In this document: positions 6,054 to 61,414 of the stretch, one piece after another | Position numbering within the stretch: position 1 is the stretch's first letter | Layout: the number at the start of each line of letters is the position of its first letter | From: Candidatus Cloacimonadota bacterium | Lineage (GTDB): Bacteria; Cloacimonadota; Cloacimonadia; Cloacimonadales; JAIOQZ01 | Length of the DNA stretch: 64,000 nucleotides | NCBI GenBank assembly: GCA_021108395.1 | Contig: JAIOQZ010000026.1 | Location: forward strand, 30,051 to 94,050 | Reading direction: 5' to 3' | Notes under the pieces: model-generated | Database searches by the model: none | Told to the model about the DNA's origin: nothing | The model's input: the letters and a program-made list of their open reading frames with translations, nothing else | Translations under genes and position numbers: made by a program

Positions 6054-6725
6054 ATGAAGAAACCGCTGCTGCTGTTGCTTGTGCTGTGTCTGGCTGTTCC
6101 AGTTATTGCACAGACGGTATCGGTACGTCGCGCGGTTTTGTTCTCGGCCATGCTCCCCGGAACCGGTGAGTTGTACTCCCACAGCTACAACAAAGGCGCC
6201 ATGTTCCTGGGCGCGGAGATGGCGATTCTTTTCACCTGGTGGCGGCTGCAGCAGGAGCGTCAGTGGAAGATTGACAGTTACCAGGCATTTGCCTCGCAAT
6301 ACGCCGGCGTACCCAAGGGCAGCGACGACAACGTATATCGTCGCCTGCAAAGCTACTATAGCAACGAAGACTACAACGCGGGCATCATTCGCGACGCCCG
6401 CAACTATTTCCTCATCTACAAAAATGACCCTGAGGCATATGAGGAATACGTCAGCGCCAACATCTATTCCGGCGACGATGCCTGGCAATGGCAGACACAC
6501 TCCAAGTGGTATGAATTTCAAACTCTGAGAAACGAGAAGCAGAACCTCGAAATATACGCGAAGTTCGCGCTGGGAGCTGCGCTCATCAACCGCATCGTCA
6601 GCATCATCGACGCCGCCAGAACAGCGCGTGGCTACAACGAGCAGGCCCTGCTGAACGGAACTATCTCCGTGCAGCCGGACTGGCATAAAATGGGGTTCTT
6701 CATCAACTATGAATACAGCTTCTAA
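6054..6725 (+). CDS. Membrane protein, DUF5683-like, paralog 2 of 3
   Basis: Internal ATG 6054 gives signal peptide MKKPLLLLLVLCLAVPVIAQ, 2 nt after the previous stop. Motifs MLPGTGELYSHSY and INRIVSIIDAARTARGYN. Ends ..NYEYSF. Confidence 0.65.
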   Translation: MKKPLLLLLVLCLAVPVIAQTVSVRRAVLFSAMLPGTGELYSHSYNKGAMFLGAEMAILFTWWRLQQERQWKIDSYQAFASQYAGVPKGSDDNVYRRLQSYYSNEDYNAGIIRDARNYFLIYKNDPEAYEEYVSANIYSGDDAWQWQTHSKWYEFQTLRNEKQNLEIYAKFALGAALINRIVSIIDAARTARGYNEQALLNGTISVQPDWHKMGFFINYEYSF

Positions 6726-7368
6726 GACCCTGCTGCTGCTGATTCTGCTGGCTCTCGCCACCACCTGTGGCGCCGCCAACACCCGCCTTGTCCTGTTGCG
6801 CTCGCTCGTTATCCCCGGCTGGGGCGAACTGAGCATGGGAGACCCTTCCGGCTACGTATTCCTCACCACCGAAGTGATGCTGTGGGCAGGCCGCTATTAT
6901 TTCACCAACGAATCCGATATTACGGAAAGCGCCGCGCACGACTTTGCGGTGCAATGGTCTGGTATCCGGCCAGGCAACTACGACGAGGACTACTGGCTCG
7001 ACCTTGTTCGCTATGACAGCTCTGGCTATGACGCCGGCGGCTACAACGAATCTGTGCTGCGCGACGCGCTGTCACGATACCCGGACGACCCTGAAGCTCA
7101 ACAGGCCTACATCGACGAACACGCCTACAGTGACATGTATGCCTGGGACTGGGTTGACCGCGAACATCGTGCTCGTTTCAGTAGTATGCGCAGTGATGCC
7201 AGCCAGTATTCCGACTACGCGAAGACTGTCACGGGCATCATCGTAGCCAACCACCTGTTGAGTGTGCTTAATACCCTTCGCTCCGCCAGATCGCGTCAAC
7301 GACTGGAAGTGGGAGTGCAGATGCAAACAGACGGCACACCCTGCCTGGCAGGAACACTGCACTTTTAA
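6709..7368 (+). CDS. Membrane protein, DUF5683-like, paralog 3 of 3
   Basis: Signal peptide MNTASKTLLLLILLALATTCGA. Motifs VIPGWGELSMGD and ANHLLSVLNTLRSARSRQ. Ends ..AGTLHF. Overlaps the previous gene by 17 nt. Confidence 0.65.
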   Translation: MNTASKTLLLLILLALATTCGAANTRLVLLRSLVIPGWGELSMGDPSGYVFLTTEVMLWAGRYYFTNESDITESAAHDFAVQWSGIRPGNYDEDYWLDLVRYDSSGYDAGGYNESVLRDALSRYPDDPEAQQAYIDEHAYSDMYAWDWVDREHRARFSSMRSDASQYSDYAKTVTGIIVANHLLSVLNTLRSARSRQRLEVGVQMQTDGTPCLAGTLHF

Positions 7369-7689
7369 GATGGGGCAGCGCCCCAACCCCTTTAGAAAGC
7401 TCACTACGCTATAGAAGGCTCACTCCGCTTCGCTACGTGACATAGCTACATGACAAGCTCGCTTTTGGGGAGAAACGGTGTAAACACCGTTTGCTCCTGG
7501 GACGAACAATCGGCTTTGAAGCCGATTTTCGCAAGCGAGGCCAAACAACTTCTAACGGATACTGCGTATCCTTATGCACAATATATACACAATTATTCTT
7601 ATGACACAAGGATGCGTTAGCATCCGCTAAGAATTTTTGATCAAACTTTTTGCAAAAAGTTTGCAGGGTTCAGGGGTGGAACCCCTGTC
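7369..7689. repeat. Mosaic palindromic-unit intergenic repeat, copy A
   Basis: String of hairpin units: 7372-7384 GGGGC-AGC-GCCCC, 7473-7492 AAACGGTGT-AA-ACACCGTTT, 7508-7527 AATCGGCTT-TG-AAGCCGATT, 7557-7571 GGATAC-TGC-GTATCC, 7610-7625 GGATGC-GTTA-GCATCC, 7643-7662 AAACTTTTTGCAAAAAGTTT and 7671-7687 CAGGGG-TGGAA-CCCCTG. Also carries the block AAGGCTCACTCCGCTTCGCTACGTGAC at 7415-7441. About 90% identical to 16537-16825. Confidence 0.9.
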
Positions 7690-8895
7690 TCAGTTTGCGT
7701 TCTTCTTCAGAGAGGCAAGGTTAACCGAGAACGCCATATATATCTGCGCCACCGGCACATCCCCCAGCATATCTGCCATCATCGAGAGGTGAAGGTCTCC
7801 GGCGCGGAAAGCATAGGAAAGGCCGCCGGTGAAGAAAAGCTGGTCGTTTTCGGGGATGACAGCGTAGGCGTGGTTCTCCTCGTCGGTGACGAGCGGCCAG
7901 TAATATGAGTTTTGCGACCCCTCGGCGATGGCGGGCTTGTCCGGAAAGGACAGCTCGCCGGCGAACACCCCCGGTGACTGCATGACACCCACGCGCGCGG
8001 TATATGGCCCCTGTCGTTTCTCGGCGCCGAACTTGAGACGGGTGCGGTCGTCAAAGTCGTCGGACTGCTGACTGCACATTTCGTGCTCGACGTCGGCCGC
8101 CAGCGTTACGCTGCCCAGTGTGCAGGCCGCGCCGGCGGCTATAACCATCGGGATAGTCACATTGTAATCCTCGTCATAATTCATGTCGAACGCGATAGTG
8201 GCAGGCGAAGTGAACGACCCGCCCAACGCCAAAACGCCGTGCTGCCAACGGATTCCGGGCTGCGCTCGTAAGGCGAAATCGGTTCTTTGCTCGCGGCCAA
8301 ACATCCAGTAATTGCGATAATCTTTTTGAATATAGAGATCGGCGAGCAGGTTGAGGCCGAGCGAGAGATCGCCCCAATGACTGCTCCCCGTCACCACAAA
8401 CTGCGAATGGGTGAACGATGGCCTCAGCGTTTGGCAACCGTTATCCTGGGTTTCGCGGGCGAAGCTGTCGAACTTGATGCTCTGCGGTACAGCGAACACG
8501 AGCGCCATATCCAGCCGTGGGTGCACTGGCATCCCGAATCCGACAATGCCGAAGGGGATAGTCGAATTGTACTCCTGCGTTATGTACACGTCCTGCGGGC
8601 GGCTGTTCCTGAATGGCTTGGTGTTCATCTCGTCGATGTTCGGCTTGAGAAAAAGCTCCATGTAGGCGTATGCGCCATCCAGTTGAAGCGAAGCCGGGTT
8701 GATGAGTACGCTGTTGATGCCGCCAGGCAAAGCCACGCCTGTGTGGCCGCGACCAACGGCTTCGGCGTTGAGATAGTTGCGCGAGAACTGGTCGAATATG
8801 CTCTGAATGAACTCGGGGGCGGCGTAGGGGATACCCTCGGCCACGAGCGCAACAGTCATCGTGAGTAGCAGCAAACTGATAATGAAGCGGTACAT
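7690..8895 (-). CDS. FadL/PorV-like outer-membrane beta-barrel protein
   Basis: Signal peptide MYRFIISLLLLTMTVALVAEG. Motif AEAVGRGHTGVALPGGINSVLINPASL resembles the N-terminal motif of the PorV/PorQ/FadL-like family. Alternating beta-strand pattern throughout. Confidence 0.6.
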   Translation of the reverse strand: MYRFIISLLLLTMTVALVAEGIPYAAPEFIQSIFDQFSRNYLNAEAVGRGHTGVALPGGINSVLINPASLQLDGAYAYMELFLKPNIDEMNTKPFRNSRPQDVYITQEYNSTIPFGIVGFGMPVHPRLDMALVFAVPQSIKFDSFARETQDNGCQTLRPSFTHSQFVVTGSSHWGDLSLGLNLLADLYIQKDYRNYWMFGREQRTDFALRAQPGIRWQHGVLALGGSFTSPATIAFDMNYDEDYNVTIPMVIAAGAACTLGSVTLAADVEHEMCSQQSDDFDDRTRLKFGAEKRQGPYTARVGVMQSPGVFAGELSFPDKPAIAEGSQNSYYWPLVTDEENHAYAVIPENDQLFFTGGLSYAFRAGDLHLSMMADMLGDVPVAQIYMAFSVNLASLKKNAN

Positions 8896-8910
8896 AGTAT
8901 TCTCCTTCGC

Positions 8911-10170
8911 TCAGGAACGGAAGATTGTCTGGTTGCGGTCGGGACCGACAGATACGATGCTGACCGGTACGCCGACCAGGCGTTCGATGGCCTGTACATA
9001 TTGCTGCGCGGCTTGCGGCAGATCGTCGAAACGGGTGATGCCGGTGATGTCCTCCTGCCAGCCGGGCATATCCTCGAACACCGGCTCGGCGCGGTTCAGA
9101 GCGCTGGCGCCGGCGGGGAAGCGACCGGTCTGCTCACCGTCGATGCGGTAGGCGGTGCACACCTTGAGCGTATCGAAGCCGCTGAGCACATCGAGCAGGG
9201 TGAACGCTATCTCGTCGAGGCCGTTGATGAGCGCTGTATAGCGAGCGGCCACGGCGTCGAACCAGCCGCAGCGTCGCGGCCTGCCGGAGACAGTGCCATA
9301 TTCGTGGCCACGGTCACGGATGCGCTGGCCGGTCTCGTCGTGCAGCTCGGTAACGAACGGGCCCTCGCCCACGCGGGTGAAGTAGCTCTTATAGACGCCC
9401 ACTATGCGATCGATGCGGCGGGTGGGGAAGCCGCTGCCCGTGGCGATGCCACCCATTGTGGTGTGTGACGAGGTGACAAACGGGTAGGTGCCCAGTCCCA
9501 CATCCAGCAGCGAACCCTGCGCTCCCTCGAACAATATGTTCTTGCCTGCGCTATACATCTCGTGCATCATGTATATGGTGGGCGCAAGGCATGGTTCGAG
9601 CCTGGCTGCCGCCTCGCGCAGCAGCGCGGAGGTCTCTTCCAACTCGATGGGCCGCACTTCGCCATAGTGGTGCCGGTGCAGGTTGGCGATACCGGCTCGC
9701 AACGCCTCCTCGTCGAACAGGTCGCCGAAGAGAAGATTAACCCGCGATGTGCGGTCGGCGTAAGCTGGGCCGATGCCACGTTTGGTGGTTCCGATTTTCA
9801 CGCGGTTGGCGTCGTTTTCGTGGCCGGCGTCGATGGTTTTGTGCAGCGGCAGCACCAGCGGCGCTCGCGGCGAGATGAAAAAACGCCCCTCGAACTGCAA
9901 TCCCTGGTCACGCAGGGTGTTCATTTCCTGGAGCAACTGAAACGGGTCGATGACCATTCCCGCGCCGAGGATGCAGATGACATCGGGATAGAGCAGCCCC
10001 GATGGAACGGTGTTGAAAACGAATTTAGCGCCCTCCAGCCAGATGGTGTGGCCGGCGTTGGCGCCGCCCTGAAAGCGGACGACGGCATGGGCGTCACTGG
10101 CGAGCACATCAGTGATTTTGGCTTTTCCTTCGTCACCCCACATGCAGCCCAGAACAGCGGTTGTACTCAT
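8911..10170 (-). CDS. purA: Adenylosuccinate synthase
   Basis: GDEGKAKITD P-loop and GGANAGHT motifs. The ATG at 10170 is preceded by AGGAG, whereas the ORF track begins at 10194. Confidence 0.92.
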   Translation of the reverse strand: MSTTAVLGCMWGDEGKAKITDVLASDAHAVVRFQGGANAGHTIWLEGAKFVFNTVPSGLLYPDVICILGAGMVIDPFQLLQEMNTLRDQGLQFEGRFFISPRAPLVLPLHKTIDAGHENDANRVKIGTTKRGIGPAYADRTSRVNLLFGDLFDEEALRAGIANLHRHHYGEVRPIELEETSALLREAAARLEPCLAPTIYMMHEMYSAGKNILFEGAQGSLLDVGLGTYPFVTSSHTTMGGIATGSGFPTRRIDRIVGVYKSYFTRVGEGPFVTELHDETGQRIRDRGHEYGTVSGRPRRCGWFDAVAARYTALINGLDEIAFTLLDVLSGFDTLKVCTAYRIDGEQTGRFPAGASALNRAEPVFEDMPGWQEDITGITRFDDLPQAAQQYVQAIERLVGVPVSIVSVGPDRNQTIFRS

Positions 10171-10481
10171 GCGAACTCCTCTTGAGAGCGCCACAGGATG
10201 TCACCTGAACGAGGCGCCGATTTCACTCTCCAGTGAACCTCTCAGCGGTTTTCTGTCAAGCGCCGATATTCATTGAAGCGCCTCGATCAAGACTCACGCC
10301 AGCGATATGAGACTGATTCCAGCCTGGCTAGCCCCACCGTGGTTGGCCTGCGTCAGCGCCGGCGAGCGTTGCTTCTCCTGGCGTCGATTGCAGCACATAC
10401 ATCGGCGGGTCAGCGTTATCGGTAAAATATGGGTTGACGAAAACATCCCACCCACTTTGATGTTCTGAAATAACTTCAACA

Positions 10482-11822
10482 GTGAGCATCGCTATGCAAG
10501 ACGAGACGACAACCAGCCAGGACGAGCAATCCATCGAGGTGGAAGTGAGCAACGACGGCATGAGAGCTTTCATCGTATTGCCCGCTGCCACCGCTTTTCT
10601 CGACGAAAAATCTATCCTGTACGCTATCGAAGAAGCCGGAGTGACAGAGGGCTTCGAGCGCGCCGCAGAACAAGCCGCCGACGAGGAACGCCTTGCAGGC
10701 CGGCCAATGATTGTCGCTTTGGGGCAGCCGGTGAGTGAAGCCGCGGTCGAGTTCTCGCCGCTGTTCGACACCGAGCGCGCCTTCGAGCCGGCCAGCTTTG
10801 ACAACAACCTGCACCTGCTGCAACGATACGCCACCGTCATCGCGGGCGAACCTCTGGCGCATCTGTTCGTTACCCGTCCTCCCAGAACCGGTCGCAACGT
10901 ACGCGGCGAAGAGGTGACGCCCCAGCGCACCGCCGACGAGGCAATCGCAGCCTGCCTGGGCGAAGGGGCCGCCTTTGACGCCGACCGCTCGCAAGCGCTG
11001 GCCACCAGCAACGGCTATCCCTATCTCGACGAAACAGGCCGCGTGTGTGTCAAGTCGGAGTTCGTCATCGAGGGCGACATCGGGCTGGACTGTGAGCACT
11101 TCGGCGTCTTCGGCAACCTCACCGTCAACGGTAACATCCGCGAGAAGCTCATCATCGAAGTGACCGGCAACCTGACCGTCAATGGCGACATCGACGATGT
11201 TACGGTGAAGGTCGATGGCAACGCCGTCATCAACGGCGACATCCTCAACTGCCGCACCGGTGGCGTGCATGTGTCCGGCGACATCAGTTTCACCTCGGCA
11301 GACAACGCCCTGGTGGTTTGCGCCGGGCATATCCGCTTCACCGAACACGCGCAGTTCTGCAAGCTCATCGCGGGGCGGGGCGTATATGGCGACGAACAGA
11401 AGAGTTCGCTCGTGGGCGGCCTTGTGCAGAGCGGCGAGCACGTCGAAGTGGCGGTCATCGGCAACTCCGGCGCCATCGGCACCGAAATCGAAATCACCAT
11501 CAGTCCCTACATCAAAGAAAAGATGCTGGCTCTTACCAAGAAGCTGGCCTCGTTGCGTGAGAAACCCAGCGACAACGCCGCGCTCATCGATATGCTCACA
11601 GAGCAACTTCAAAACTACGAAAACCAGCTCGAAGAGCACATAAACGAAACGCTTCTGGGCAGCGTGACGCTGCCGCGCCATATCATCGTATTCAAGAAAA
11701 TCTTCGGCGGCACCTATCTGCGCATCCTCAAGAAATCGCAGACAGTGGTGGACGAGATGGAAAAGGTCTCGTTCAGCATCGCCGATGGCGAACTCGTCGC
11801 CGACAGTTTCAAAACCGACTGA
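10482..11822 (+). CDS. FapA-family protein (DUF342)
   Basis: N-terminal pattern IEVEVSNDGMRAFIVL. Central left-handed-helix-like repeats NLTVNGNI..VTGNLTVNGDIDDVTVKVDGNAVINGDI. C-terminal coiled coil. GTG start at 10482, or ATG at 10494. Confidence 0.7.
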   Translation: MSIAMQDETTTSQDEQSIEVEVSNDGMRAFIVLPAATAFLDEKSILYAIEEAGVTEGFERAAEQAADEERLAGRPMIVALGQPVSEAAVEFSPLFDTERAFEPASFDNNLHLLQRYATVIAGEPLAHLFVTRPPRTGRNVRGEEVTPQRTADEAIAACLGEGAAFDADRSQALATSNGYPYLDETGRVCVKSEFVIEGDIGLDCEHFGVFGNLTVNGNIREKLIIEVTGNLTVNGDIDDVTVKVDGNAVINGDILNCRTGGVHVSGDISFTSADNALVVCAGHIRFTEHAQFCKLIAGRGVYGDEQKSSLVGGLVQSGEHVEVAVIGNSGAIGTEIEITISPYIKEKMLALTKKLASLREKPSDNAALIDMLTEQLQNYENQLEEHINETLLGSVTLPRHIIVFKKIFGGTYLRILKKSQTVVDEMEKVSFSIADGELVADSFKTD

Positions 11823-11833
11823 AAGGTAACTTC

Positions 11834-12070: not shown

Positions 12071-12137
12071 CCATCTTGCCTGTTGACAGCCCTCGCGGCC
12101 TGCGAGAACCTGTCCTCATTACATAATGGGAGCGAGC

Positions 12138-15910: not shown

Positions 15911-16536
15911 TCATGTTCGGCAAGCAGGCAGTGGTGGCCAAGTTCTTCCTGGCACTGCTGCTGCTGCTGTGTGGCCTGCTGGCCGGGCTGCGACAAACGC
16001 TTCTGCTCACCGCCATGTCCGCGCTTTTCCTCTCACCTGCGCCACGCCTGTTACTGCAATGGCTGCGCCTGCTGCTGCGGCTCTGCCTGCCGTTTGCAGT
16101 TTTCTTCCTGCTGGGCATGGTTTCGGGCATTCCGTTCCCCGCCCAGTCGCTGCTGGCTCTGCGTGTCGCGCTGTTCCTGCTGCTGTCGGTCTGGCTGGCG
16201 CAAACCTCGCGCCTCGAACGCCTGGTACGCGAACTGCACCCGTTGCGGCGTATTCCGCTGGTGCATGACGCGCTGTGGTATCTTGTGGGGACGCTGCTGT
16301 GGCTGCCGGTCATCGGGGAGTGTCTGCGCAGGCGGCGCGGGGATGCCCGCTCTGTGCGGGCGCTGCCGAGGCTGCTGGTGGACGCGCTGGGAGAGGCAAT
16401 CGAGCGCATGGATGATATAGAACGACACACCGAAACAGCGCTGGCGCAGAGCGGTGACGCTTCGCGCTTCTCGGCGGCCAACCTGCTGCTGCTGCCGCCC
16501 GCGCTCGCCGCCATCGCCATTCTGCTCTGGCTCTAA
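15907..16536 (+). CDS. Polytopic membrane protein, hypothetical (weak CbiQ/EcfT-like look)
   Basis: GTGA overlap with the upstream stop. Leu-rich TM segments. No diagnostic motif recognised. Confidence 0.45.
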   Translation: MIMFGKQAVVAKFFLALLLLLCGLLAGLRQTLLLTAMSALFLSPAPRLLLQWLRLLLRLCLPFAVFFLLGMVSGIPFPAQSLLALRVALFLLLSVWLAQTSRLERLVRELHPLRRIPLVHDALWYLVGTLLWLPVIGECLRRRRGDARSVRALPRLLVDALGEAIERMDDIERHTETALAQSGDASRFSAANLLLLPPALAAIAILLWL

Positions 16537-16825
16537 GAGCAGGGGCTCTGCCCCTAAACCTTTAGAAAGCTCACTCCGCTATAGAAGGCTCACTCCGCTT
16601 CGCTACGTGACATAGCTACATGACAAGCTCGCCTTTTTGGGAGAAACGGTGTAAACACCGTTTGCTCCTGGGACGAAAATCGGTTTAGAAGCCGATTTTC
16701 GCAGGCGAGACCGAAAACTTCTAACGGATACTGCGTATCCTATGCACAATAGTTATTCTTATAACACAAGGATGCATTAGCATCCGCAAAAGTTGTGGGG
16801 TGTCAGGGGCGGAGCCCCTGCCTCT
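16537..16825. repeat. Mosaic palindromic-unit intergenic repeat, copy B
   Basis: Units at 16541-16555, 16644-16663, 16678-16697, 16726-16740, 16770-16785 and 16804-16820, with the block at 16585-16611. Colinear with copy A, but one arm of the T5GCA5 palindrome is missing. Confidence 0.9.
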
Positions 16826-17950
16826 TCACTCGGCGATGATCTCTACATTGGCGCGAGGAATGAGGACGCAGTTGCCGTCTTCCAGCTCGGCTTCGAGGAT
16901 GCGCACCTTTGTTTCGCTTTCCACTACCTTGGGCTCCTCCGGCATGGCCACTACCTTGCCAATCTTGCCGAAGTTGGGCTGGCGGATAACGCGGATGGTC
17001 TTGCCCACCTCGAGGAAGGGAAGTTCAGCTTCATCGTGGCCATCGCTTGCAGTCGTAACGGCCTTGGGGATAATGATCTCCGGTCGGATAACACCGGCGC
17101 GAATCTGTGTCTTGCCGTGCATCGAGGTACGGTGGCCGTTGTATTTATTCAGCAGGTCGAATGTGTGCTGCGCCATGCGGATGTTGCCAAAGCCCTCGGT
17201 GACGACAAGGGTGATGCCGACGTTTTCGTGACCGGTGATGGCGACGCCAATGTCATAGCCGAGCAGTTTCTTCAAGTCCTGGTCGTTGATGCCGCCGGTG
17301 ATGATGCCTTTTACGCCGACTTCGATCGCCTTCTTGACCGACTCGTAGGGGATAAGCTCGCCGCTGACGATAATCTTGTCTTTGTGCGATTCGTCGATGC
17401 GATCGGGCGTGAGGATTTCTTCGGGGCTGCTGATGAAACAGGCGATTTCGCCGGTGATTTCGTTGCCGATGCCGAAGATACCCTGGATGTACGCCGAGCG
17501 GTTCTCGACCACCACTCCCTCTTCGGGAATCACCTCGACCACGATGCCATCGATGAAGGCGCGCACCTCGATGGGGTTGCGCGGCTCACGCAGCAGCGCC
17601 TGGCCAGTGTGACGGCTTACGCTTTCTATCTCGCCGTCTGTGGGCGACTTGACAGCGGTCTTGAACATGCCCATGAAGCCCTTGGTCTGGGCAAGCACCT
17701 GGCCTTTGGTTATCATGTCGCCTTCCTTGACCATGAGGAAGTTGCCAACCATGTCGGGCGTCACGCCCAGTTTGTTGGCCAGATTCAGCGGCACCACTTT
17801 GCCCGGAAGCATGGTGACGGCAACCACGTCCTCAGCCTTGACGGTGTCTCCCTCGGAGGCTTTCACCTCGCCCTTCAGGGGAAGTATCCGCTGCTGGCGG
17901 ACGATCATGCTATCGGTTACGGCGAGTCCTTGTGAATATGATTTTCCCAT
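16826..17950 (-). CDS. Conserved hypothetical protein with a barrel-sandwich-hybrid-like N-terminal region and a KOW/SH3-like C-terminus
   Basis: True start is ATG 17950 with AGGAGGA 4-5 nt upstream. The 81 codons upstream in the ORF track overlap the preceding gene and look like junk (Arg-rich). KEGDMITKGQVLAQT is lipoyl/biotinyl-fold-like but has no modified Lys motif. Confidence 0.7.
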   Translation of the reverse strand: MGKSYSQGLAVTDSMIVRQQRILPLKGEVKASEGDTVKAEDVVAVTMLPGKVVPLNLANKLGVTPDMVGNFLMVKEGDMITKGQVLAQTKGFMGMFKTAVKSPTDGEIESVSRHTGQALLREPRNPIEVRAFIDGIVVEVIPEEGVVVENRSAYIQGIFGIGNEITGEIACFISSPEEILTPDRIDESHKDKIIVSGELIPYESVKKAIEVGVKGIITGGINDQDLKKLLGYDIGVAITGHENVGITLVVTEGFGNIRMAQHTFDLLNKYNGHRTSMHGKTQIRAGVIRPEIIIPKAVTTASDGHDEAELPFLEVGKTIRVIRQPNFGKIGKVVAMPEEPKVVESETKVRILEAELEDGNCVLIPRANVEIIAE

Positions 17951-17958
17951 GCTTCCTC

Positions 17959-42900: not shown

Positions 42901-45900
42901 GTCGAGATTCAACGGAGTGGCAAGCTGGAGCGGCAGTACATGCGGCTCAACAACTCACAGCAGCGTATCTCGATACCCATAATCGACAGCGACATTGGCG
43001 GCATCTTTGTGAGTGTGGCCTTTGTAAAAGACAATCGGCAGTACATCGAGCAGAAAACAATTCAGGTGCCTGCACGACAGATGCAGCTCGATGTGCATCT
43101 GACAACACTTCGCGACACCCTGCGCCCAGGCGCAGAAGAAACCTGGACGCTACAAGTGAATGACTACTTCGGTGAGCCAGTGACCAACGCTCAGATTGCC
43201 GCAACGCTGTATGACGCTTCGCTCGACGCATTTAAGAATCTTCAGTGGCAACCACGCTTTCTCGACAGGTTCAGACGGCAACTGATATACATACGTTCTG
43301 CTAATAACCCTGAGCCTCAGCGGCAACAGCTCTCAAGACGCTATGTTGCACATTACCAGTCATATAAAAGACGCACACTGAATTGGCAACTCGGTCGCAG
43401 GATGTACTCGCCCTACCAGAGAGGGGGCATTTCCATTTATGGTTTTTCAGATGGTACTGAAGTGAAAGGCTTTGAGACGAACGACATCGCCGTTGAAACT
43501 CAAGTTGCCAGTTATGCCGCCAGGGCACCCGCTGGCAGTACGCCCCCTGTTGATGACAAACCGGAAGCTCCCCGCACCAAGCTGGCCGAAACCGCGTTTT
43601 TCTATCCAAACCTGCGCACGGACGAGAACGGCGAGGCAGTTTTCAGCTTCACCGTACCCGATGCGCTCACCCGCTGGAAATGCCTCGCCTTCGCATACAC
43701 ACGGGACGCCGCGCAGGGCAACCTCACACGGAAGTTCGTCACCCAGAAGCAACTGATGGCGCAGCCCAATCCACCGCGCTTTCTGCGCGCCAGCGACGTG
43801 ACAGGTCTGCCGCTGCGCATTCAGAACGTCACCGGCGAGGCCATCGCCGGCACGGCGCGACTCGAGATTCTCGACGCCTTCACCATGCGTCCGCTGGGCG
43901 AGGCCTTTGGCCTGAACGAGCCGGAGCGTCCGTTTGCCGCCGCAGCACTGGGCGGAACCTCTGTGCGCTGGGACGTGACGGTACCACAGGGCGTGCAGGC
44001 GGTGGTACTCCGGTTCCGCGCCACCGGCGACAACCACACCGACGCCGTCGAGCTGACGCTGCCTGTGCTGCCCGGGCGCATGCTGGTGACCGAGACCCTG
44101 CCCATGCCTGTGCGCGGCAACCAGAGCCGCAGCTTCACCTTCGACCGCCTGCGCGACAGCACATCCCCTACGCTGACGCATCAGGCGCTCACTCTCGAAT
44201 TCACCTCGAACCCGGCCTGGCTGGCCGTGCTGGCACTCCCCTACCTGATGGAATCGCAGCATCCCAGCTCCGATGCCGTGTTCAGCCGCCTCTATGCCAA
44301 CACGCTGGCCGCACACATCGTCACCCCCGACATCGAGTGCACATTCGCGCTCTGGCGCGAGCTGAACGATGGCCCGGCGTTGCTGTCGCCGCTGGAGAGA
44401 AACCATGACCTCAAGCAGGCGCTGCTCGAAGAGACGCCCTGGGTGCGTCAGGCAATGACGGAAAGCCAACAGCGGCGTGACATCGCCCTGTTGTTCGACG
44501 CCAACCGCCTGCGCAACGAAAGCGCCACTGCCTTGCGAAAGCTGCGCCAGATGCAGTCTGGCGGCGGCTGGCCGTGGTTCCCCGAAATGCGCCCCAGCGA
44601 ATGGATCACGCGGCGCATCGTCACCGGCCTGGGCAAGCTGAACGCTGTAGGGGCACTCAGCGAGGCGCAATCCACCGAGGTGGCACGCATGGCAGTGCCC
44701 GCCATTGTCTGGCTCGACAGCCGCGCTGCCGAGCGCTACCGGCATATCCTCGACAACAGCATCTCGCCCGACTCGATGCATATCGGCTCGAGCGAAGCGC
44801 ACTGGCTGCTGGCACGCAGTTACTGGCCGCAGATGACTGTGCGTGACGACGCTGCCGAAGCTCTCGATTACTGGATGTCCCAGGCGCGCAAGTACTGGAC
44901 GCGGCAGCCCATAGCCACCAAAGCGATGATTGCTCTGGCGCTGCACCGCACTGGCGATGCCACCACGCCCGGACGCATACTGGCCAGCCTGCGCGACTAC
45001 GCAATCCGCGACGAGGAAACCGGCTGGCACTGGAAGCTGCCGCAGAGCTGGTGGTGGTATGACCGCCCAATCGAAACGCAGGCGCTGTTGGCGCAGGCTT
45101 TCTTTGAGATCGAGGGCGACACGCAATCCGCCGACGAGATTCGCCTGTGGCTGCTCAAGCAAAAGCAAACCAGCAATTGGGAAACCAACACCGCCACCGC
45201 CGACGCCTGCTGGGCGCTGCTTACTCAGGGCGCCGACTGGCTGGCAGGCAATCAGGCTGTCAGCATCGAGGTGGGTGGCGAAATGGTGCAGGCGGGTATG
45301 GACGACACAGCGCAAGCGGAGGCGGGCACCGGCTGGTTCCGGCATTCATGGCAGGCAACAGAGGTGGCGCCAGAACTCGCAGAGGTAGAGGTCGCCAACC
45401 CCAACCCCGGCCCGGCCTGGGGCGCGCTATACTGGCAATACTTCGAGAACCTCGACCGCATCGAAGCATCTGCGGAAATGCCACTGCAACTGCGTCGCGA
45501 GCTGCTGCGCGAGCAGATGACCGACCAGGGCGCCGAGCTGGTGCGCATCTCCGACGGCGATCCGTTGCGCGTGGGCGACAAACTCGTCGTTCGGCTCACC
45601 ATCGAGACTGACCGCGCTATGGAATATGTGCACATAAAGGATATGCGCGCCGCCGGCGCCGAACCGCTGGACGTGCTTTCGGGCTGTGAGTGGCGCGACG
45701 GGCTGTGCTATTATCGCTCGACGCGTGACACCGCCACGTACTTCTTCATCGAGCGGCTGCCACGCGGACTGTATGTGTTTGAATACCGACTGTGGGCCGC
45801 CCAGCCGGGTGTTTACAAGGCCGGCATCGGCACGGCGCAGTGCATGTATGCGCCGGAGTTCTCGGCGCACACGCAGGGGGAAACGCTGGAGGTAAGTGAA

Positions 45901-45903
45901 TGA
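39955..45903 (+). CDS. Bacterial alpha-2-macroglobulin family protein, thioester-less
   Basis: ATG 39955 with GGAGGA 8 nt upstream (the ORF track starts at 39886). ETAFFYPNLRTDENGEAVFSFTVPDALTRWKCLAFAY is the conserved A2M motif. The expected thioester position reads LPYLMESQHPSS (no CxEQ). Confidence 0.8.
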   Translation: MKTKNNATGFRPRKTTHVQRLLLLLLLTTCMMGATEHQLWQQVKQLETQDLPRRADEAVQTILEEAHAAGDTVQYIQAVIYRVKYLRVLREDGYVPVDSLLKAEIARSDGVARALLWSMRGEQLAQMPVGYGGRYHWGTPARTRGPVDPNDLRTWDNATRSAEIMRCYERSLVQPELLLVTPLTDFRSLMKLGGGDSTPLNTTMLHLLAHRALDYYQSYSPPPAMHDIVPLDESWLCSAHELQQRSVPPGDSLSANARALRLYQQLQRSVAPQKTEAGVLYTLDRLEWVYGSLPQSYITYDNMLDTMMRRWRDNQVYSDICYKRAELWSEFGRTYNRTGEGNADARQKAVRYATMGMEAYPDSHGGKNCKGIYKTHLSPEAAVFILPVYPPAQDFPVRIDYTNTDSLTLDLYRVDYSVATSRLHSYTELITLMDSVDVFRSYAVNLPASTDYNEHSSEFIIEGLETGAYLCNIRAATGPFSKPMLFQVTSLDLLIMGSRDTLDFHVVDRVSGQPVPGAGIVLTRRVNREWINSATLVTDESGFAPYTDFPRTTLIISVQTSDDCFISRLPLSFWSARRRHDHLVRTFLTDRAIYRPGQTVHFTEIIWNHSGFLNFTPDRHRRQFVLSGPKHSSESSLVLRPDEFGACSGSFTLPRGGATGRYCISLVYYKTHCILVEEYKRPTFSLELNQPQGSFALGDSLTIRGRATAYAGYDLSSASVRWSVATTANINRQPRYQVPGSIIASGETSIASDGSFEFDFPLQILSHTDDARQIFEVNVEITDAGCETRDANLSFTASTQAIHIEADSQERLECSEVATIGVQVQNAAGQPIDAVVQMQVERLVSPDRLLRVAKWESSDVPLYDREEWVRRLPHQPWSDELDQDTWAVAETMLKTTISTATETGYELKNCRGWTQGAYRLIFTATDAQGHQTTLVRHITLYDREARQPPLPQYLWFVAPNSVESGEIAEILIGSAAPDVWAIVEIQRSGKLERQYMRLNNSQQRISIPIIDSDIGGIFVSVAFVKDNRQYIEQKTIQVPARQMQLDVHLTTLRDTLRPGAEETWTLQVNDYFGEPVTNAQIAATLYDASLDAFKNLQWQPRFLDRFRRQLIYIRSANNPEPQRQQLSRRYVAHYQSYKRRTLNWQLGRRMYSPYQRGGISIYGFSDGTEVKGFETNDIAVETQVASYAARAPAGSTPPVDDKPEAPRTKLAETAFFYPNLRTDENGEAVFSFTVPDALTRWKCLAFAYTRDAAQGNLTRKFVTQKQLMAQPNPPRFLRASDVTGLPLRIQNVTGEAIAGTARLEILDAFTMRPLGEAFGLNEPERPFAAAALGGTSVRWDVTVPQGVQAVVLRFRATGDNHTDAVELTLPVLPGRMLVTETLPMPVRGNQSRSFTFDRLRDSTSPTLTHQALTLEFTSNPAWLAVLALPYLMESQHPSSDAVFSRLYANTLAAHIVTPDIECTFALWRELNDGPALLSPLERNHDLKQALLEETPWVRQAMTESQQRRDIALLFDANRLRNESATALRKLRQMQSGGGWPWFPEMRPSEWITRRIVTGLGKLNAVGALSEAQSTEVARMAVPAIVWLDSRAAERYRHILDNSISPDSMHIGSSEAHWLLARSYWPQMTVRDDAAEALDYWMSQARKYWTRQPIATKAMIALALHRTGDATTPGRILASLRDYAIRDEETGWHWKLPQSWWWYDRPIETQALLAQAFFEIEGDTQSADEIRLWLLKQKQTSNWETNTATADACWALLTQGADWLAGNQAVSIEVGGEMVQAGMDDTAQAEAGTGWFRHSWQATEVAPELAEVEVANPNPGPAWGALYWQYFENLDRIEASAEMPLQLRRELLREQMTDQGAELVRISDGDPLRVGDKLVVRLTIETDRAMEYVHIKDMRAAGAEPLDVLSGCEWRDGLCYYRSTRDTATYFFIERLPRGLYVFEYRLWAAQPGVYKAGIGTAQCMYAPEFSAHTQGETLEVSE

Positions 45904-46104
45904 CAAGCTCGCTTTTGAAAAAAGCGAGACCAAAAACTTCTCTAAAAGGGTCACTCCGCTTCGCTACATGACTGGAACCTTCGTTTCCTATGTACAAAAG
46001 AATCATTTTGTGCACAGGATGCGTTAGCATCCGCTAAATGTTTTTGAACCAAACTTTTTACAAAAAGTTTGGCGGGGTGTCAGGGGCAGAGCCCCTGTCT
46101 CTTA
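45901..46104. repeat. Mosaic palindromic-unit intergenic repeat, copy C (overlaps the stop codons of both convergent genes)
   Basis: Units at 45908-45928 CTCGCTTTT-GAA-AAAAGCGAG, 45974-45988, 46017-46032 GGATGC-GTTA-GCATCC, 46051-46070 AAACTTTTTACAAAAAGTTT and 46081-46097 CAGGGG-CAGAG-CCCCTG. Block at 45945-45972. Confidence 0.85.
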
Positions 46105-49100
46105 ACAAGCTCAACAACTTCTCGACCTGATAGCCACTGTGTTGCATAGCCTTCCACAGGCTTTGCAGCCACTCACCCAGGCGAGACACAGCCTCGTCTT
46201 CCTCGGACTGACCCTCGCAGCCGGCGGCGCAGCGCAACAGCAGCACAGCCGTCACCCAGCCCAACATCTGCTCGAACCGCTCCTGGTTGAACCACAGCAC
46301 ATCGCGCCAGCGATTCACTTGCAGCCACTGCCGCACATCCTCGTCGGCCAGCATATGCTGCACGAAACGAAGCGGCGTTTCCCAGTCGCTGTCGCTTTTC
46401 ATAGCCTGCTGGTGCTCGGTGAGGCTGGCGATAAGCTCGACGGCGCTTTCGGCGCGTTCGTCCAGCAGGTGACGATATTGCTCACGCATCGGTTGCAGCA
46501 GTAACCACTGGTCGATGTAGCTACGACTGCGCTCGGCAGCCCATTTGTCACCCTCGACCTCGCCCAGCCGATGCACCAGCGCCCAGCCAACCAACACCAG
46601 GCGGTCGAAGCTCTGCTCGAAGTTGCACTTGACCGGAGCATACTCATGCAGTGATGAATAGATGGAACTGATTCTTTTGCGCGAGGCCAGCAACTGTAGC
46701 TCGCGGTGAACACGCGACCATACTTTCTCGGCGTTTTCGGAGTGGCCTGTCATCTCGACCAGTCGAGCCAGCAGGGAACTGTACATCGGCGCCAGGCTTT
46801 CCAGCAACTCTGGCATGGCGCTCTCTCCGGCTGCGGCCAGTTCTTGCAGGCGCGTGGCCTCGAACACGGCCCCAAACGCCTCCTGCAACGGCTGCAGGAA
46901 GGTCTCCTTCATCGCCATGCGCATGTCGGGCACGCCGCGACCGGTCAGATAGCGTTCGAGGTGCGCCCAGCGTTGGGCGCTGTCGTCGGCCACTTCCTCG
47001 AATTCGATGAAAACGTGATACTTGAACGCCCCCAGCTCGACGAACAGTCCCTCATGATGCAGGCTGTCGGCGCGGCGGATGTACTGTAGGCCGACCACAT
47101 GATCGCGGAAGATGACGAAGCGGTCGTCGCCGCGCCGCAGGCCCAGGCCTTCGCCGACACTGCCGGGGTTGAACCCGTCGCCGCGTCGGGCGGTGGTGTT
47201 TTTCACCCAGCCGGCGGCCTCGTCGAAACGGTTGTTGTATATCACCAGCGCCCGTTCGTCGCCACAGCGGTTGGTGTGGGCAAAGACGTTCTGGTTCACC
47301 TGGCCGTGTGCATCGATAAAGTCGTAGAGGGCGAAGTTCTTCACCTCGGCAAAGACGTGCCGCAGCTTCATCAAGGGGAATATCTCACGCTCGTGGCGAC
47401 GCACCAGCCACTGGTCGGGCTGCTCGTCCCACATAGCGCGGCTGTACTCCATGCCATAGCGCTCTTTCAGGCCTTCGATCTGCCCGTGGCCAAACATGGG
47501 CAGACCAGGCAGCGTCACCATGAGGGTGCACACGCCGAAGTATTTGTCGTCCTGCCCGAACTGCGCGATGGCCGTTTCCTCGTCAGGGTTGTTCATGAAG
47601 TTCACCAGCCGCTTCAGAATCTCGGGGTTGAATTCGAGCACGTTGCGAATGGTCTGGCGATATTTCTCGTTCTCCTCGCTCTTCAGCATGTTCATGAAGG
47701 CGCTGTTATAGACGCGGTGCATGCCCAACGTGCGCACAAAGTAGCCCTCCATCAGCCAGAAGGCCTCGGCCAGCAGCAGCGTGTCGGGGGCCACTTCGGC
47801 AACCTTGTCCACCACCTGTCGCCAGAATTCCTCCGGCATGGCGGCGTCGAACTGCTCGCGGCTGAGGCCGCATTCGGCGCGACTGGGAATGTCGCCGCCA
47901 GAGCCTGGTTCGGGAAACCACAACCGCTGAAAGTGTTTCTTTGTGAGCGTCATGGCGGCGTCGAAGCGGATGATGGGGAACTGCTGCGCAATGGCGACAA
48001 TCCTGTCGAGCACCGCCTGGCGCACTTCCGGCAGCAGATAGTTGAGCTGCGCCGTGTCGTTCCAGGGCATATTGGTGCCGTCGTTGCCGTGATAGATGTA
48101 GCGTTCGCCGTGGTCGTCGGCGCGCTTGAACGTCACTGCGGCGTCGGTGCGGTCGTAATAGTGATCCTCGACCCACAGACCCACGCCGGGCTGCTCGCTG
48201 AGATTGGCGCTGTTGTAGGTGTAGGCGGGAAACGGCGGCTGCGACGACTGCACGAACCACTCAGGATGCTCGATTACCCAGCGCGAATCGATGCCCATGT
48301 GATTTGGCACCATGTCACTGCCCATGCGGATGCCACGTTGCCAGGCGCGATGCCTGAGATCGGCGAGGGCAGCTTCGCCGCCCAGGTCTTCGGCGATGGT
48401 GTAGTCGTGCAGGGAATATGCGCTGGCAATGGCGTCGTCACGGCCAAGCATCTGTTTGAGGCGGCGCGAGGCGAGGCTGCGCTCCCATACCCCGATGAGC
48501 CACAGGCCGGTGAATCCCCAGTCGCGCAGGCGGTCGAGCTCCTCGTCGGGAATCTGGTCGAGGCGCGTGATGGTGCGCTGATAGCGGCGCGAAAGCTGGT
48601 CGAGCCACACATAAGTGCTCTTGGCGATGAGCAGCAGACGCGGCATCCAGTCGCGGTCGGGACTGAACCGCTCCGGCTCGTCTTCGGCATGGCGGCGGGC
48701 AAACTGAAGCACCTGGCTCTCGCCCTTGCCATCGAAGTGTACCTTGTCCTCTTCCGCGATGAAATCCATGCCGCGCAGCAAGACATAGAACCACTCTTCC
48801 AGCAGGCTGCCCCAGCGACGGCGAATGTAGTCGAGCTGGCCGGGGATGGAGTGCGGCTCGGCCTCGGCAGGCTCACGCAGCATTTGCACCAGCGGCTTGT
48901 TGTCGGGGCCGAACCCCGGCTGTGCGGCAAAGAAGTCGTCGATAGCGCTCATGGCCGTGACAAAAGCAGGCTGCCGACGCACCGCGTCGCTGCGGAACAT
49001 ATCGTCGAACCCGGCGAAAGCCTCGTTGCTGTCGGTGAGCCAAAAGCGCAACAGTTCCCGTACGATCAGGCTCTGGCGGTCATCGCCGCCAGCTTCGAGC

Positions 49101-49504
49101 CACGCGGCGGGGGTTTGCTCTCCAGAGTCAACCTCCTGTGGCGGAAACTCGCCGATGTAGGTTTCGAGCAGGTCGCGCAGCGTGTCTTCGCCCAGCGCTT
49201 CGCGCAGGTTGTCGCGACAGGCGGCCAGCGTATCGCCATCGTGACGCTCGGCATACAGGTCCATCACGAGAAAAAGGATGCGGTCGATGAGACCGGCGCC
49301 ATGCAGATGCCCGGCGCGGACGGCGCGCTCTGGATACAGGCTCACCTGCCGCTGAATGTTTATCTGCCGCGCAAAGAGTCGGGCAATCTGAAAGTGCTCG
49401 AATACCGCTTTGCCCTGCGATGACAGCATGTCCTGGCGCAGGCGGTAGCGACGACGGGCGGCTTGCGTGACGTGTAATCCGGGATAGCGTTTTGCTTCGG
49501 GCAA
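46058..49504 (-). CDS. Large GH13 (alpha-amylase family) glycoside hydrolase/transferase
   Basis: Region I SDMVPNH, region II IIRFDAAMTL, region III LLLAEAFW, region IV-like NFMNNPDE. 1148 aa. The last 15 codons lie inside repeat copy C. Confidence 0.8.
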   Translation of the reverse strand: MPEAKRYPGLHVTQAARRRYRLRQDMLSSQGKAVFEHFQIARLFARQINIQRQVSLYPERAVRAGHLHGAGLIDRILFLVMDLYAERHDGDTLAACRDNLREALGEDTLRDLLETYIGEFPPQEVDSGEQTPAAWLEAGGDDRQSLIVRELLRFWLTDSNEAFAGFDDMFRSDAVRRQPAFVTAMSAIDDFFAAQPGFGPDNKPLVQMLREPAEAEPHSIPGQLDYIRRRWGSLLEEWFYVLLRGMDFIAEEDKVHFDGKGESQVLQFARRHAEDEPERFSPDRDWMPRLLLIAKSTYVWLDQLSRRYQRTITRLDQIPDEELDRLRDWGFTGLWLIGVWERSLASRRLKQMLGRDDAIASAYSLHDYTIAEDLGGEAALADLRHRAWQRGIRMGSDMVPNHMGIDSRWVIEHPEWFVQSSQPPFPAYTYNSANLSEQPGVGLWVEDHYYDRTDAAVTFKRADDHGERYIYHGNDGTNMPWNDTAQLNYLLPEVRQAVLDRIVAIAQQFPIIRFDAAMTLTKKHFQRLWFPEPGSGGDIPSRAECGLSREQFDAAMPEEFWRQVVDKVAEVAPDTLLLAEAFWLMEGYFVRTLGMHRVYNSAFMNMLKSEENEKYRQTIRNVLEFNPEILKRLVNFMNNPDEETAIAQFGQDDKYFGVCTLMVTLPGLPMFGHGQIEGLKERYGMEYSRAMWDEQPDQWLVRRHEREIFPLMKLRHVFAEVKNFALYDFIDAHGQVNQNVFAHTNRCGDERALVIYNNRFDEAAGWVKNTTARRGDGFNPGSVGEGLGLRRGDDRFVIFRDHVVGLQYIRRADSLHHEGLFVELGAFKYHVFIEFEEVADDSAQRWAHLERYLTGRGVPDMRMAMKETFLQPLQEAFGAVFEATRLQELAAAGESAMPELLESLAPMYSSLLARLVEMTGHSENAEKVWSRVHRELQLLASRKRISSIYSSLHEYAPVKCNFEQSFDRLVLVGWALVHRLGEVEGDKWAAERSRSYIDQWLLLQPMREQYRHLLDERAESAVELIASLTEHQQAMKSDSDWETPLRFVQHMLADEDVRQWLQVNRWRDVLWFNQERFEQMLGWVTAVLLLRCAAGCEGQSEEDEAVSRLGEWLQSLWKAMQHSGYQVEKLLSLLRDRGSAPDTPPNFL

Positions 49505-50868: not shown

Positions 50869-50910
50869 TGTGCCTCCCGCGAGATTTACGCGCAATTTAC
50901 TCTGTTATCA

Positions 50911-53766: not shown

Positions 53767-53808
53767 AGTGCCTCCCGCGAAATCTACATGCACTTTCCTT
53801 TCCAATCG

Positions 53809-57714: not shown

Positions 57715-58010
57715 TTTGTAAAAATCAGCCGAACTGATTCTTTTAGATCAGCGGCGGGTAAGACAGGGGCTTTGCCCCTTTGAAGGCTCACTCCGTTACA
57801 CTACGTGACGTAACCCCATCCACTTTTTGTAAAAAGTGGAAACAAAAACTTTTACGGATACTTCGTATCCTGTGCTCGGAATATTCTTTTGAGACAAAGG
57901 AAACGAAGGTTCCTGTCATGTAGCGAAGTGACTCTTATAGAGAAGCTTTTTGGATTTTACCTTTTTCTCGAAAAAGGTAAACTTGTCTTTGTCAACACAA
58001 GGAATAATAT
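57715..58010. repeat. Mosaic palindromic-unit intergenic repeat, copy D
   Basis: Units at 57723-57739, 57765-57779 AGGGGC-TTT-GCCCCT, 57820-57839 CCACTTTTTGTAAAAAGTGG, 57856-57870 GGATAC-TTC-GTATCC, 57899-57913 GGAAACGAAGGTTCC and 57957-57980 TTACCTTTTT-CTCG-AAAAAGGTAA. Block at 57783-57809, with an inverted copy at 57915-57936. Confidence 0.85.
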
Positions 58011-59452: not shown

Positions 59453-59650
59453 GCGCTAAGAGATAGGGGCACCGCCCTTTTCAAGGCTCACTCCGCTTCG
59501 CTACGCGACTTGAACCCCGTCCACTTTTTGCAAAAAGTGGAATCAAAAACTCTTAATGGATGCTACGCATCCTGTGTACAAGACAAATCTATATGTATGT
59601 AGGAAACGGCGTTTCCGCAAGAGTTTTTGATCAAATTTTTTACATATGTT
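59453..59650. repeat. Mosaic palindromic-unit intergenic repeat, copy E
   Basis: Colinear with the first ~140 nt of copy D. GC hairpin, block at 59483-59509, 59521-59540 CCACTTTTTGCAAAAAGTGG, 59558-59572 GGATGC-TAC-GCATCC, 59602-59616 GGAAACG-G-CGTTTCC. Confidence 0.85.
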
Positions 59651-59745
59651 TGGCGCGTGAAATGTACTTTTTTCCGAAAAACATTGCGCGTCTGTCCCGT
59701 TTTCATTTTAATGAACTCACAGTATAAAGGGACATAACCGGAGGC

Positions 59746-61352: not shown

Positions 61353-61414
61353 AGCAGCCTCCTGAACAGAGCTAAGTCACTCACTTTTTGCAAAAAGCGA
61401 GCTTGCCTTCCTCT

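Follow-up and report, generated by a model that had tools for sequence, protein, structure and literature searches.

Hairpin modules of a dispersed mosaic palindromic repeat family behind genes of a Candidatus Cloacimonadota bacterium

The window analysed here is a stretch of 64,000 nucleotides from a metagenome-assembled genome (MAG) of a Candidatus Cloacimonadota bacterium (assembly GCA_021108395.1, contig JAIOQZ010000026.1, positions 30,051 to 94,050; locus tags K8R90_). It is part of a 239-kb contig, has a G+C content of ~58% and encodes PorV and proteins with type IX secretion system (T9SS) tails. Five of its intergenic regions, all next to housekeeping genes, are occupied by composite palindromic elements of ~170-320 bp, designated R1 to R5 (Table 1), within which no open reading frame (ORF) was called; three lie between convergent genes, two between genes of the same direction and none between divergent genes. 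Every hairpin listed in an initial annotation of this DNA falls inside these five elements, and all of its hairpin coordinates are correct; what had been missed is that the hairpins are almost certainly modules of dispersed mosaics, a genome-specific family of palindromic intergenic repeats, and that they occur in both orientations as inverted arms. One further module copy, of the type called P/B below, stands alone.

Reading of the sequence, blastn comparison of both strands and a covariance model resolved each mosaic into two inverted arms that face each other across an AT-rich centre of ~30 nt, which is itself palindromic and extends the arm palindrome, so that the arms serve as the long inverted repeats of the element. 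An arm opens with the motif TAAGAGAC, i.e. TAAGAG(A/G)Y, followed by the GC-rich hairpin t (consensus AGGGGC-NNN-GCCCCT, 15-17 nt), an optional module A, the sequence ACCCC, hairpin P (20-26 nt, with a free outer stem of 4-6 bp enclosing T5-NN-A5), a linker close to GATCAAAAACTCTTAGC and hairpin F (15-16 nt; consensus GGA-NNC, loop, GNN-TCC). All three hairpin units fold. The position of F can be occupied by X (GGAACC..GTTTCC or GGAAAC..GTTTCC), and that of P by B or B' (CTCGC..GCGAG and TTTACC..GGTAAA), the flanks of B' (GACAAG.. and ..CCAAAAA) being homologous to those of B. The initial annotation had not recorded these variants (GGAAAC..GTTTCC, GGAACC..GTTTCC with its mismatch, and the outer stems CTCGC/GCGAG and TTACC/GGTAA). 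A GGATAC unit in the left arm is often partnered by a GGATGC unit in the right arm of that element, and the AAAC and CCAC palindromes represent a single module, viewed in opposite arm orientations. In R1 and R2 the B stem is interrupted by two additional hairpins, C and D, and the right arm of R2 has no linker and no P. A covariance model of the oriented linker and F found exactly 10 arms, each on a single strand, and nothing elsewhere in the window or in relatives; the repeat sample thus comprises 10 arms in 76 kb, i.e. the window together with extensions of 3.3 kb and 9 kb along the contig, in which no additional repeat copy was found.

The order of modules differs among the copies, with A inserted at differing places and C and D within the B stem, which indicates that modules recombine as the family evolves. 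Within one element, the two arms have differing F variants (GGATAC versus GGATGC; GGATGC versus GGAAAC), and arms are closer to the arms of other elements than to their own partners (blastn, F alignment). Since the arms of one element differ and are not co-conserved, it is the local hairpins that are conserved and not a long hairpin of the type formed by REPINs, the doublets of repetitive extragenic palindromes (REPs). Long-hairpin folds of whole elements compete as alternative minimum-free-energy structures, and the fold of R1 has z = -6.9 on both strands.

Are these units related to each other, or could they be unrelated low-complexity A/T tracts and short palindromes that resemble each other by chance? 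The initial annotation had named this objection itself, and the units are indeed short (15-22 nt) and contain A/T runs. However, hairpins of the form GGATRC-N2-6-GYATCC, which it had singled out, number seven in the window versus 0.12 expected (none of 100 shuffles reached seven), the T5-NN-A5 palindromes (ACTTTTTNNAAAAAGT) five versus 0.02 expected, and perfect GGA-NNN-loop-NNN-TCC hairpins eight, all within mosaics, versus 1.2 in shuffles. Among T5-N0-4-A5 sites, an outer stem of four or more complementary pairs is present at five in the window and at none of 32 in 1.48 Mb of other loci, and the units share conserved flanks and order. The objection is thereby disposed of, and chance resemblance is vanishingly improbable. 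Two details of description need amendment. The palindromes labelled T5GCA5 are present, but the centre is AC at 46051-46070 and GT at 57820-57839, centres that the same annotation had allowed for in its remark on variable bases; and while centres do vary, as stated there, the loops are not free, with T first and C last in 9 of 10 copies in arm orientation.

A key question is whether the pairing of these stems is maintained. In the F/X hairpin, 96.7% of cells across the 10 arms are paired, and two of the six pairs show double changes: seven copies have U-A and three A-U at position 4, and at position 5 four have A-U, four G-C, and two are unpaired or other. Neither the pairing nor the covariation score was reached by any of 500 shuffles, slid controls were 26-53% paired, and the half-sites of F are matched in 8 of 10 copies, mixed ones being rare. 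For P/B the test was scripted, because MAFFT left the P variants out of structural register; the outer stems have four unrelated sequences (TCCAC, CAAAC, CTCGC, TTACC), and all 35 of 35 cells are paired, which 39 of 20,000 shuffles equal. The matched changes reported initially for these two unit types are thus borne out, and two stems beyond them also compensate. The t hairpin shows two double changes and one G-U pair, although the statistics for t alone are weak, and in the long-range B stem the difference between R1 (CTCGCTT/AAGCGAG) and R2 (CTCGCCT/AGGCGAG) is a compensated T-A to C-G change across a 68-nt insert. The other differences between R1 and R2 lie in loops or spacers or form G-U pairs (hairpin D); F differs in its loop, and C is identical. 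Compensated changes are thus seen in stems of four types: F/X, P/B, t and the long-range stem. As the copies are paralogous, the independent events are few, about 8-9 in all (~2-3 in F/X, 3 in P/B, 2 in t and 1 in the long-range B stem). Two cases are not compensated: a C.T mismatch in X, which is one event in two copies, and the decayed P copy at 59634-59655. The compensation signal is consistent and the sample is small; ~10 arms cannot separate an RNA hairpin, a dimeric-protein or cruciform site, and mutational alternatives.

The initial annotation read such changes as a signature of selection. Pairing is indeed kept via double changes, but template switching offers an alternative route to the same pattern, since within palindromes it creates and repairs perfect stems, altering both sides in one event (PMC8794818). 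Could replication template switching (quasipalindrome correction) and gene conversion keep the palindromes perfect, 'compensating' in one mutational step and with no structural selection at all? In addition to being a documented mechanism, this would agree with the perfect Watson-Crick pairing and 2-4-nt loops of most stems, with P outer stems that differ wholesale and not by single steps, and with the mosaic shuffling, which reflects active recombination among copies. It accords poorly with a compensated B stem that spans a 68-nt insert holding two other hairpins, and with the G-U pairs, the C.T mismatch and the decayed copy that persist uncorrected; moreover, the placement of sense-oriented arms behind genes suggests functional constraint, and the mechanism explains the repair of pairs, not the persistence of dozens of hairpin modules. 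We therefore consider it decidedly unlikely as an account of these stems, although template switching may have played a part, above all where P outer stems differ wholesale.

The position of the mosaics relative to genes provides another line of evidence. Arms that lie directly behind a gene are all in the sense orientation of that gene. The t hairpins are found at mosaic borders only, starting 3-6 nt past stop codons, and in four of seven arms the TAA or TGA of the arm motif is the real stop codon of the gene. The amylase-like ORF (46058..49504, - strand) runs through t into P and ends in the tail ..LLRDRGSAPDTPPNFL* (window 46058-46105), the arm-motif TAA being one base out of frame, and the A2M-like gene ends at a TGA stop codon within the repeat ATGACAAGCTCGC (window 45900-45903). 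Since these ORF ends run into the repeat or are set by it, the annotation of gene ends beside mosaics is doubtful. The T5/A5 palindromes had been described as not being classical intrinsic terminators, and this description is accurate: in P and F, the A/T runs are enclosed by the stem, or a following U tract is missing. Neither P nor F combines a GC-rich stem-loop with a U tract, and the GC-rich t is followed by T3-4 in merely two of seven copies.

Folding of both strands, which had been proposed as a way to recognise RNA, is informative for a few asymmetric stems, and these fold better on the sense strand of the gene they follow. The solo P/B copy lies 13 nt past the stop codon of a gene for Gln-tRNA synthetase, 61415-63085(-), and its two G-U pairs form on the sense (-) strand alone (-10.3 versus -5.4 kcal/mol); the left t hairpin of R5 folds at -9.7 kcal/mol (sense) versus -5.6 kcal/mol; B'' has three G-U pairs on the + strand only (-12.7 versus -7.3 kcal/mol); and in the left arm of R2, the + (sense) strand of hairpin D contains a G-U pair. 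For most stems, which are perfect Watson-Crick palindromes, the comparison says nothing. In REPs, location behind genes and the G-T pair argument have been taken to favour an RNA role (PMC3733652), and the distribution of the present elements matches theirs.

The initial annotation had also offered a dimeric-protein binding site. Operator-like sites of this kind, or cruciform or nucleoid-protein sites, with the GGA..TCC and TTTTTGCAAAAA cores as contacts, would account for the invariant GGA/TCC and T5/A5 cores, the latter with GC, GT or AC centres; AT-rich palindrome centres would favour cruciform extrusion, and the binding of gyrase and IHF by bacterial interspersed mosaic elements (BIMEs) of E. 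coli provides a precedent (PMC3733652, PMC8266576). A protein site does not, however, require outer stems such as those of P, which are free in sequence yet always complementary, and for this reason a dimeric-protein site is the worst fit to the data. The rarity of mixed F half-sites, the location of the sites behind genes and not in divergent promoter regions, and the absence from the window of a regulator gene linked to the mosaics also speak against such sites, which we regard as very improbable.

Such a combination of features makes it possible to suggest, with moderate confidence, that this REP/BIME-like family, or family of miniature inverted-repeat transposable element (MITE) type, retains its arm hairpins chiefly because of an RNA role at the 3' ends of mRNAs. 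The arms would be transcribed as 3' tails of the preceding genes, where their stems would be kept as RNA hairpins that probably act in termination or attenuation, block 3' exonucleases, or stall ribosomes near the stop codon. All three roles have been proposed for REP/BIME and enterobacterial repetitive intergenic consensus (ERIC)-type repeats. Spread and homogenisation could proceed by recombination, gene conversion or a transposase. Several observations weigh against this proposal. The sense-strand G-U asymmetry rests on 4-5 sites and could likewise be produced by strand-biased C-to-T mutation, and the perfect Watson-Crick palindromes that form the majority are uninformative on RNA versus DNA. 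The independent compensatory events are few, in 10 arms from 76 kb, and the shuffle tests overstate significance because the copies are related by descent; P outer stems, which differ nearly everywhere, look more like the product of replacement or template copying than of stepwise compensation. In addition, the t hairpins of right arms have no U tracts, the right arms of R4 and R5 are antisense and upstream of the next gene (one of them being the decayed copy), and no transposase gene, including that of a REP-associated tyrosine transposase (RAYT), lies in the window.

How did the elements come to occupy different intergenic regions? R1 and R2 are 91% identical over ~240 nt and lie between differing gene pairs 9 kb apart; judged by such identity in unrelated contexts, the elements are copied repeats. 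Most of R4 (57819-57981) corresponds to R3 in reverse complement, including a 31-nt block at 97% (blastn), and R4 and R5 share 78 nt at 86%. Direct repeats of an arm (t1, A, P, linker, F; 57761-57871 and 59461-59573) flank glnA on both sides, and R1 and R2 bracket a 9-kb block (window 7366-16828). In a Cloacimonadia relative (L089 10001-12302), the gene for histidine ammonia-lyase comes immediately after the orthologue of gene 6709-7368; in the present genome, four genes (a hypothetical gene, purA, a FapA-like gene and a 78-aa ORF) separate the two. R1 and R2 may mark a rearrangement.

It is possible, though on balance unlikely, that the hairpins are recognised as single-stranded DNA (ssDNA) or as terminal inverted repeats by a copying transposase, in the manner of REP/REPIN-RAYT systems or of MITEs of insertion sequences (IS), and that the stems serve propagation and not the host. 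The inverted arms with their spacer resemble BIME/REPIN and MITE layouts, blocks at 86-97% identity occur among copies in unrelated contexts, both element orientations are present (R3 versus R4), and elements overlap ORF ends. Arms start right after TA at four of four left ends, and TA follows one of three right ends, a pattern consistent with a TA target; the TA concerned belongs to a stop codon. The tetranucleotide GTAG occurs on the opposite strand of module A, and a 22-mer of this module is present in intergenic DNA of another organism. Against a transposase of this kind stand the absence of a conserved GTAG/CGTC tag next to F or P, of a clear or consistent target-site duplication around the elements, of a transposase gene in the window and 12 kb of contig extension, and of a RAYT in the 76 kb sampled. 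The arms of one element are not co-conserved, as would be needed to keep a long REPIN-type hairpin, and the block of identity between R1 and R2 excludes the outer t and P, a pattern closer to that of recombination or conversion than to the transposition of whole units.

A more speculative idea, to which we give a slim chance, is that the arm (stop codon, t, ACCCC, P, linker, F) is a self-contained copy-and-paste 3'-end cassette that is placed behind genes, including by replacing their stop codons, and is mobilised by a shape-reading enzyme. An enzyme that reads hairpin shape and not sequence would explain P outer stems that are free but complementary, and module A, given its opposite-strand GTAG and its presence in an unrelated organism, could be a shared recognition hairpin of a horizontally moving ssDNA transposase.

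Module A deserves separate description. Its 22-mer TCACTCCGCTTCGCTACGTGAC is intergenic in an unrelated low-GC organism (metagenome Ga0265296; L003 1778-1799, L006 179-200), where it adjoins the look-alike units GCGCACTCCGCTGCGCTTCGTGCG and GACACTCCG...CTTCGTGTC. The opposite strand of the module reads GTCAC-GTAG-CGAAGCGGAGTGA, with GTAG beside a weak, poorly conserved palindrome. As an anchor, the 22-mer had no match in the genome contig collection, chance matches only in viral contigs, and four matches in metagenome contigs, of which two are probably chance and two come from the other organism.

The repeat is lineage-restricted. In the closest species representatives, whose adenylosuccinate synthase (purA) is merely 59% identical (purA scan), the repeat units were not found; a 58%-identical orthologue elsewhere has an ordinary bidirectional terminator at the orthologous site instead of the repeat, and in a more distant relative the intergenic element is absent at that site. 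Searches of plasmids and phages gave no similar DNA, and in an Rfam scan tRNA-Leu alone passed the gathering threshold, with no match to the mosaics at E up to 5, so that a known RNA family was rejected. A concatenated six-frame peptide query for spurious ORFs in other copies found nothing, and a paralogue search with a lineage-specific protein led to no other contig of the MAG.

Another important question is whether the mosaics could be an artefact of assembly. This was rejected, as a second assembly has the same sequence up to its contig ends. The contigs from short-read data (SRR15668623) stop inside module A, B' (~window 57961) and P (~window 59540) (L002 6856-6924; L101 ends), as expected of multi-copy sequence, and the repeats thus explain the breaks in the short-read assembly of this organism.

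Table 1 Coordinates of the mosaics, hairpins and modules in the window
Feature	Positions	Strand	Context, sequence or remark
Mosaic R1	7366..7692		Between convergent genes 6709-7368(+) and 7690-8895(-); order t1, A', A, A'', B stem enclosing C and D, linker, F, AT-rich centre, F, linker, P, t2; from reading and blastn module map
Mosaic R2	16534..16828		Between convergent genes 15907-16536(+) and 16826-18193(-); from blastn
Mosaic R3	45900..46105		Between convergent A2M-like gene (+) and amylase-like gene (-); order B, linker, A, X, centre, F, linker, P, t2; overlaps both ORF ends
Mosaic R4	57758..57981		Between thiS-like 57518-57715(+) and glnA 58022-59452(+); order t1, A, P, linker, F, centre, X, A(rc), linker, B'
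Mosaic R5	59457..59692		Between glnA(+) and acyl-CoA dehydrogenase 59746-60894(+); order t1, A, P, linker, F, centre, X', linker, decayed P', extra hairpin B''
F, R1 left arm	7557..7571	+	GGATAC-TGC-GTATCC
F, R1 right arm	7610..7625	-	GGATGC-TAAC-GCATCC
F, R2 left arm	16726..16740	+	GGATAC-TGC-GTATCC
F, R2 right arm	16770..16785	-	GGATGC-TAAT-GCATCC; differs from R1 copy in loop only
X, R3 left arm	45974..45988	+	GGAACC-TTC-GTTTCC; C.T mismatch at stem position 5
F, R3 right arm	46017..46032	-	GGATGC-TAAC-GCATCC
F, R4 left arm	57856..57870	+	GGATAC-TTC-GTATCC
X, R4 right arm	57899..57913	-	GGAACC-TTC-GTTTCC
F, R5 left arm	59558..59572	+	GGATGC-TAC-GCATCC
X', R5 right arm	59602..59616	-	GGAAAC-GCC-GTTTCC
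P, R1	7642..7663	-	CAAAC-T5GCA5-GTTTG
P, R3	46049..46072	-	CCAAAC-T5-GT-A5-GTTTGG on arm strand
B (P variant), R3	45908..45928	+	CTCGC-TTTT-GAA-AAAA-GCGAG
P, R4	57819..57840	+	TCCAC-T5GTA5-GTGGA
B' (P variant), R4	57956..57981	-	TTTACC-T5-CGAG-A5-GGTAAA
P, R5	59520..59541	+	TCCAC-T5GCA5-GTGGA
Decayed P, R5	59634..59655	-	CAAACATATGTAAAAAATTTG; right half lost; fold 0.0 kcal/mol; homology from blastn 7629-7651 vs 59619-59641
B'', R5	59652..59692	+	Irregular hairpin, T6-CCG-A5 core
Solo P/B	61379..61402	-	GCTCGC-T5GCA5-GTGAGT
Long-range B stem, R1	7458..7539	+	CTCGCTT (7458-7464)/AAGCGAG (7533-7539)
Hairpin C, R1	7473-7492		Inside B stem
Hairpin D, R1	7503-7531		Inside B stem
Long-range B stem, R2	16628..16709	+	CTCGCCT (16628-16634)/AGGCGAG (16703-16709)
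t, R1	7371..7385	+	TGGGGC-AGC-GCCCCA; directly 3' of stop codon
t variant, R1	7672..7686	-	AGGGGT-TCC-ACCCCT; compensated C-G to U-A
t, R2	16541..16555	+	
t, R2	16805..16819	-	
t, R3	46082..46096	-	Within read-through tail of amylase-like ORF
t, R4	57765..57779	+	Followed by TTTG
t, R5	59465..59479	+	One sense-strand G-U pair; followed by TTTT
Module A	7418..7441	+	GCTCACTCCGCTTCGCTACGTGAC; from blastn
Module A, other copies	16588-16611, 45949-45972, 57786-57809, 59486-59509	+	
Module A, partial inverted copy	~57908-57930		

Several other candidate identities were considered for the modules and rejected. A Bacteroidetes-type -33/-7 promoter (TTTG..TAnnTTTG) in the linker and P has too short a spacing, and the tRNA promoter in the window is of the TTGACA type; resemblances to DnaA box, IHF, FNR/CRP, CodY, NtcA and TnrA motifs are partial and not conserved among copies; and integron attC sites would come with a cassette array and an integrase, both of which are absent.

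Three further repeats were observed in the window. Two inverted G6/C6 hairpins, CCCCCCTGTCAAGGGGGG (56701-56718) and CCCCCCTTGACAGGGGGG (56823-56840), flank ~100 nt upstream of a thiF-like gene at 56888, and the pair (56701-56840) has no Rfam match. An 87-nt repeat with 86% identity (50866-50952 and 53764-53850) spans both the 5' ends and the upstream DNA of two neighbouring - strand genes, one of which encodes a T9SS-tail protein, in a region of lower G+C (0.49-0.53). A 78-nt repeat with 90% identity (24922-24999 and 25568-25645) lies inside two adjacent - strand ORFs without a Pfam match, which are tandem paralogues with only three relatives in the protein collection.

As a biological kind, the mosaics are ordinary. 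Their practical importance lies in assembly, given the contig breaks described above, in annotation, since two ORF ends run into the repeat or are set by it and gene-end calls beside mosaics need checking, and in the natural series of stem variants, which, with a full genome, could test RNA selection versus transposase recognition versus template switching.

Interspersed palindromic repeats are well studied in Proteobacteria; to our knowledge, they are scarcely described in candidate phyla, and Cloacimonadota are not among the phyla described for REPs. A REP palindrome is a stem-loop of 20-50 nt with an unpaired GTAG or CGTC tetranucleotide at one end; RAYT-associated REPs also occur in many copies and accompany a RAYT gene that they flank. 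F, P and t all form such stem-loops, F being below the usual length range. The tag is lacking: the 5' flank of F is TARC/TTRC and its 3' flank TGTGYAC, P is bordered by ACCCCN and the linker, and GTAG occurs only in module A, on the opposite strand.

The closest analogues are the REP/BIME/REPIN/MITE families (PMC8266576, PMC3116915, PMC3733652). As in the REP/BIME repeats of Enterobacteria and Pseudomonas, the units are short intergenic palindromes behind coding regions, mostly of convergent or same-direction genes, that lie near or overlap ORF ends and form inverse pairs with variable linkers and extra motifs, i.e. a mosaic; in those repeats, G-T pairs in stems have been read as a sign of an RNA role (PMC3733652, PMC8266576). 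The present units differ in being shorter (15-22 nt), in that several unrelated types occur per arm, and in the P unit with its conserved A/T core and free outer stem. Every mosaic shows the inverse pair plus linker typical of BIMEs and REPINs. Unlike in REPINs, however, the arms carry differing stem variants, local hairpins and not the long doublet hairpin are kept, and a single-copy RAYT is not evident in the 76 kb. With hairpin MITEs (ERIC/intergenic repeat unit (IRU), Correia/NEMIS, RUP, BOX) the elements share the character of non-coding composite palindromes of 150-320 bp next to genes, folding as one long hairpin or as local ones and with possible TA at the ends, and with BOX repeats (A/B/C) a modular composition; their inverted arms, length and lack of coding sequence agree with the definition of MITEs (terminal inverted repeats, 50-500 bp, non-coding). 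Hairpin MITEs have been reported to be co-transcribed with neighbouring genes and to influence their mRNA (PMC3733652). They differ from the present elements, which have no consistent target-site duplication and no known parent IS, and whose module order varies far more than in a typical MITE. Since the GTAG/CGTC tag and co-variation of a long doublet were not found, and short palindromes with compensated stems, set behind genes as inverse pairs with linkers and overlapping ORF ends, were, we do not class the repeats with RAYT-associated REPs; they are a new family of a familiar kind, an untagged REP/BIME- or MITE-like one.

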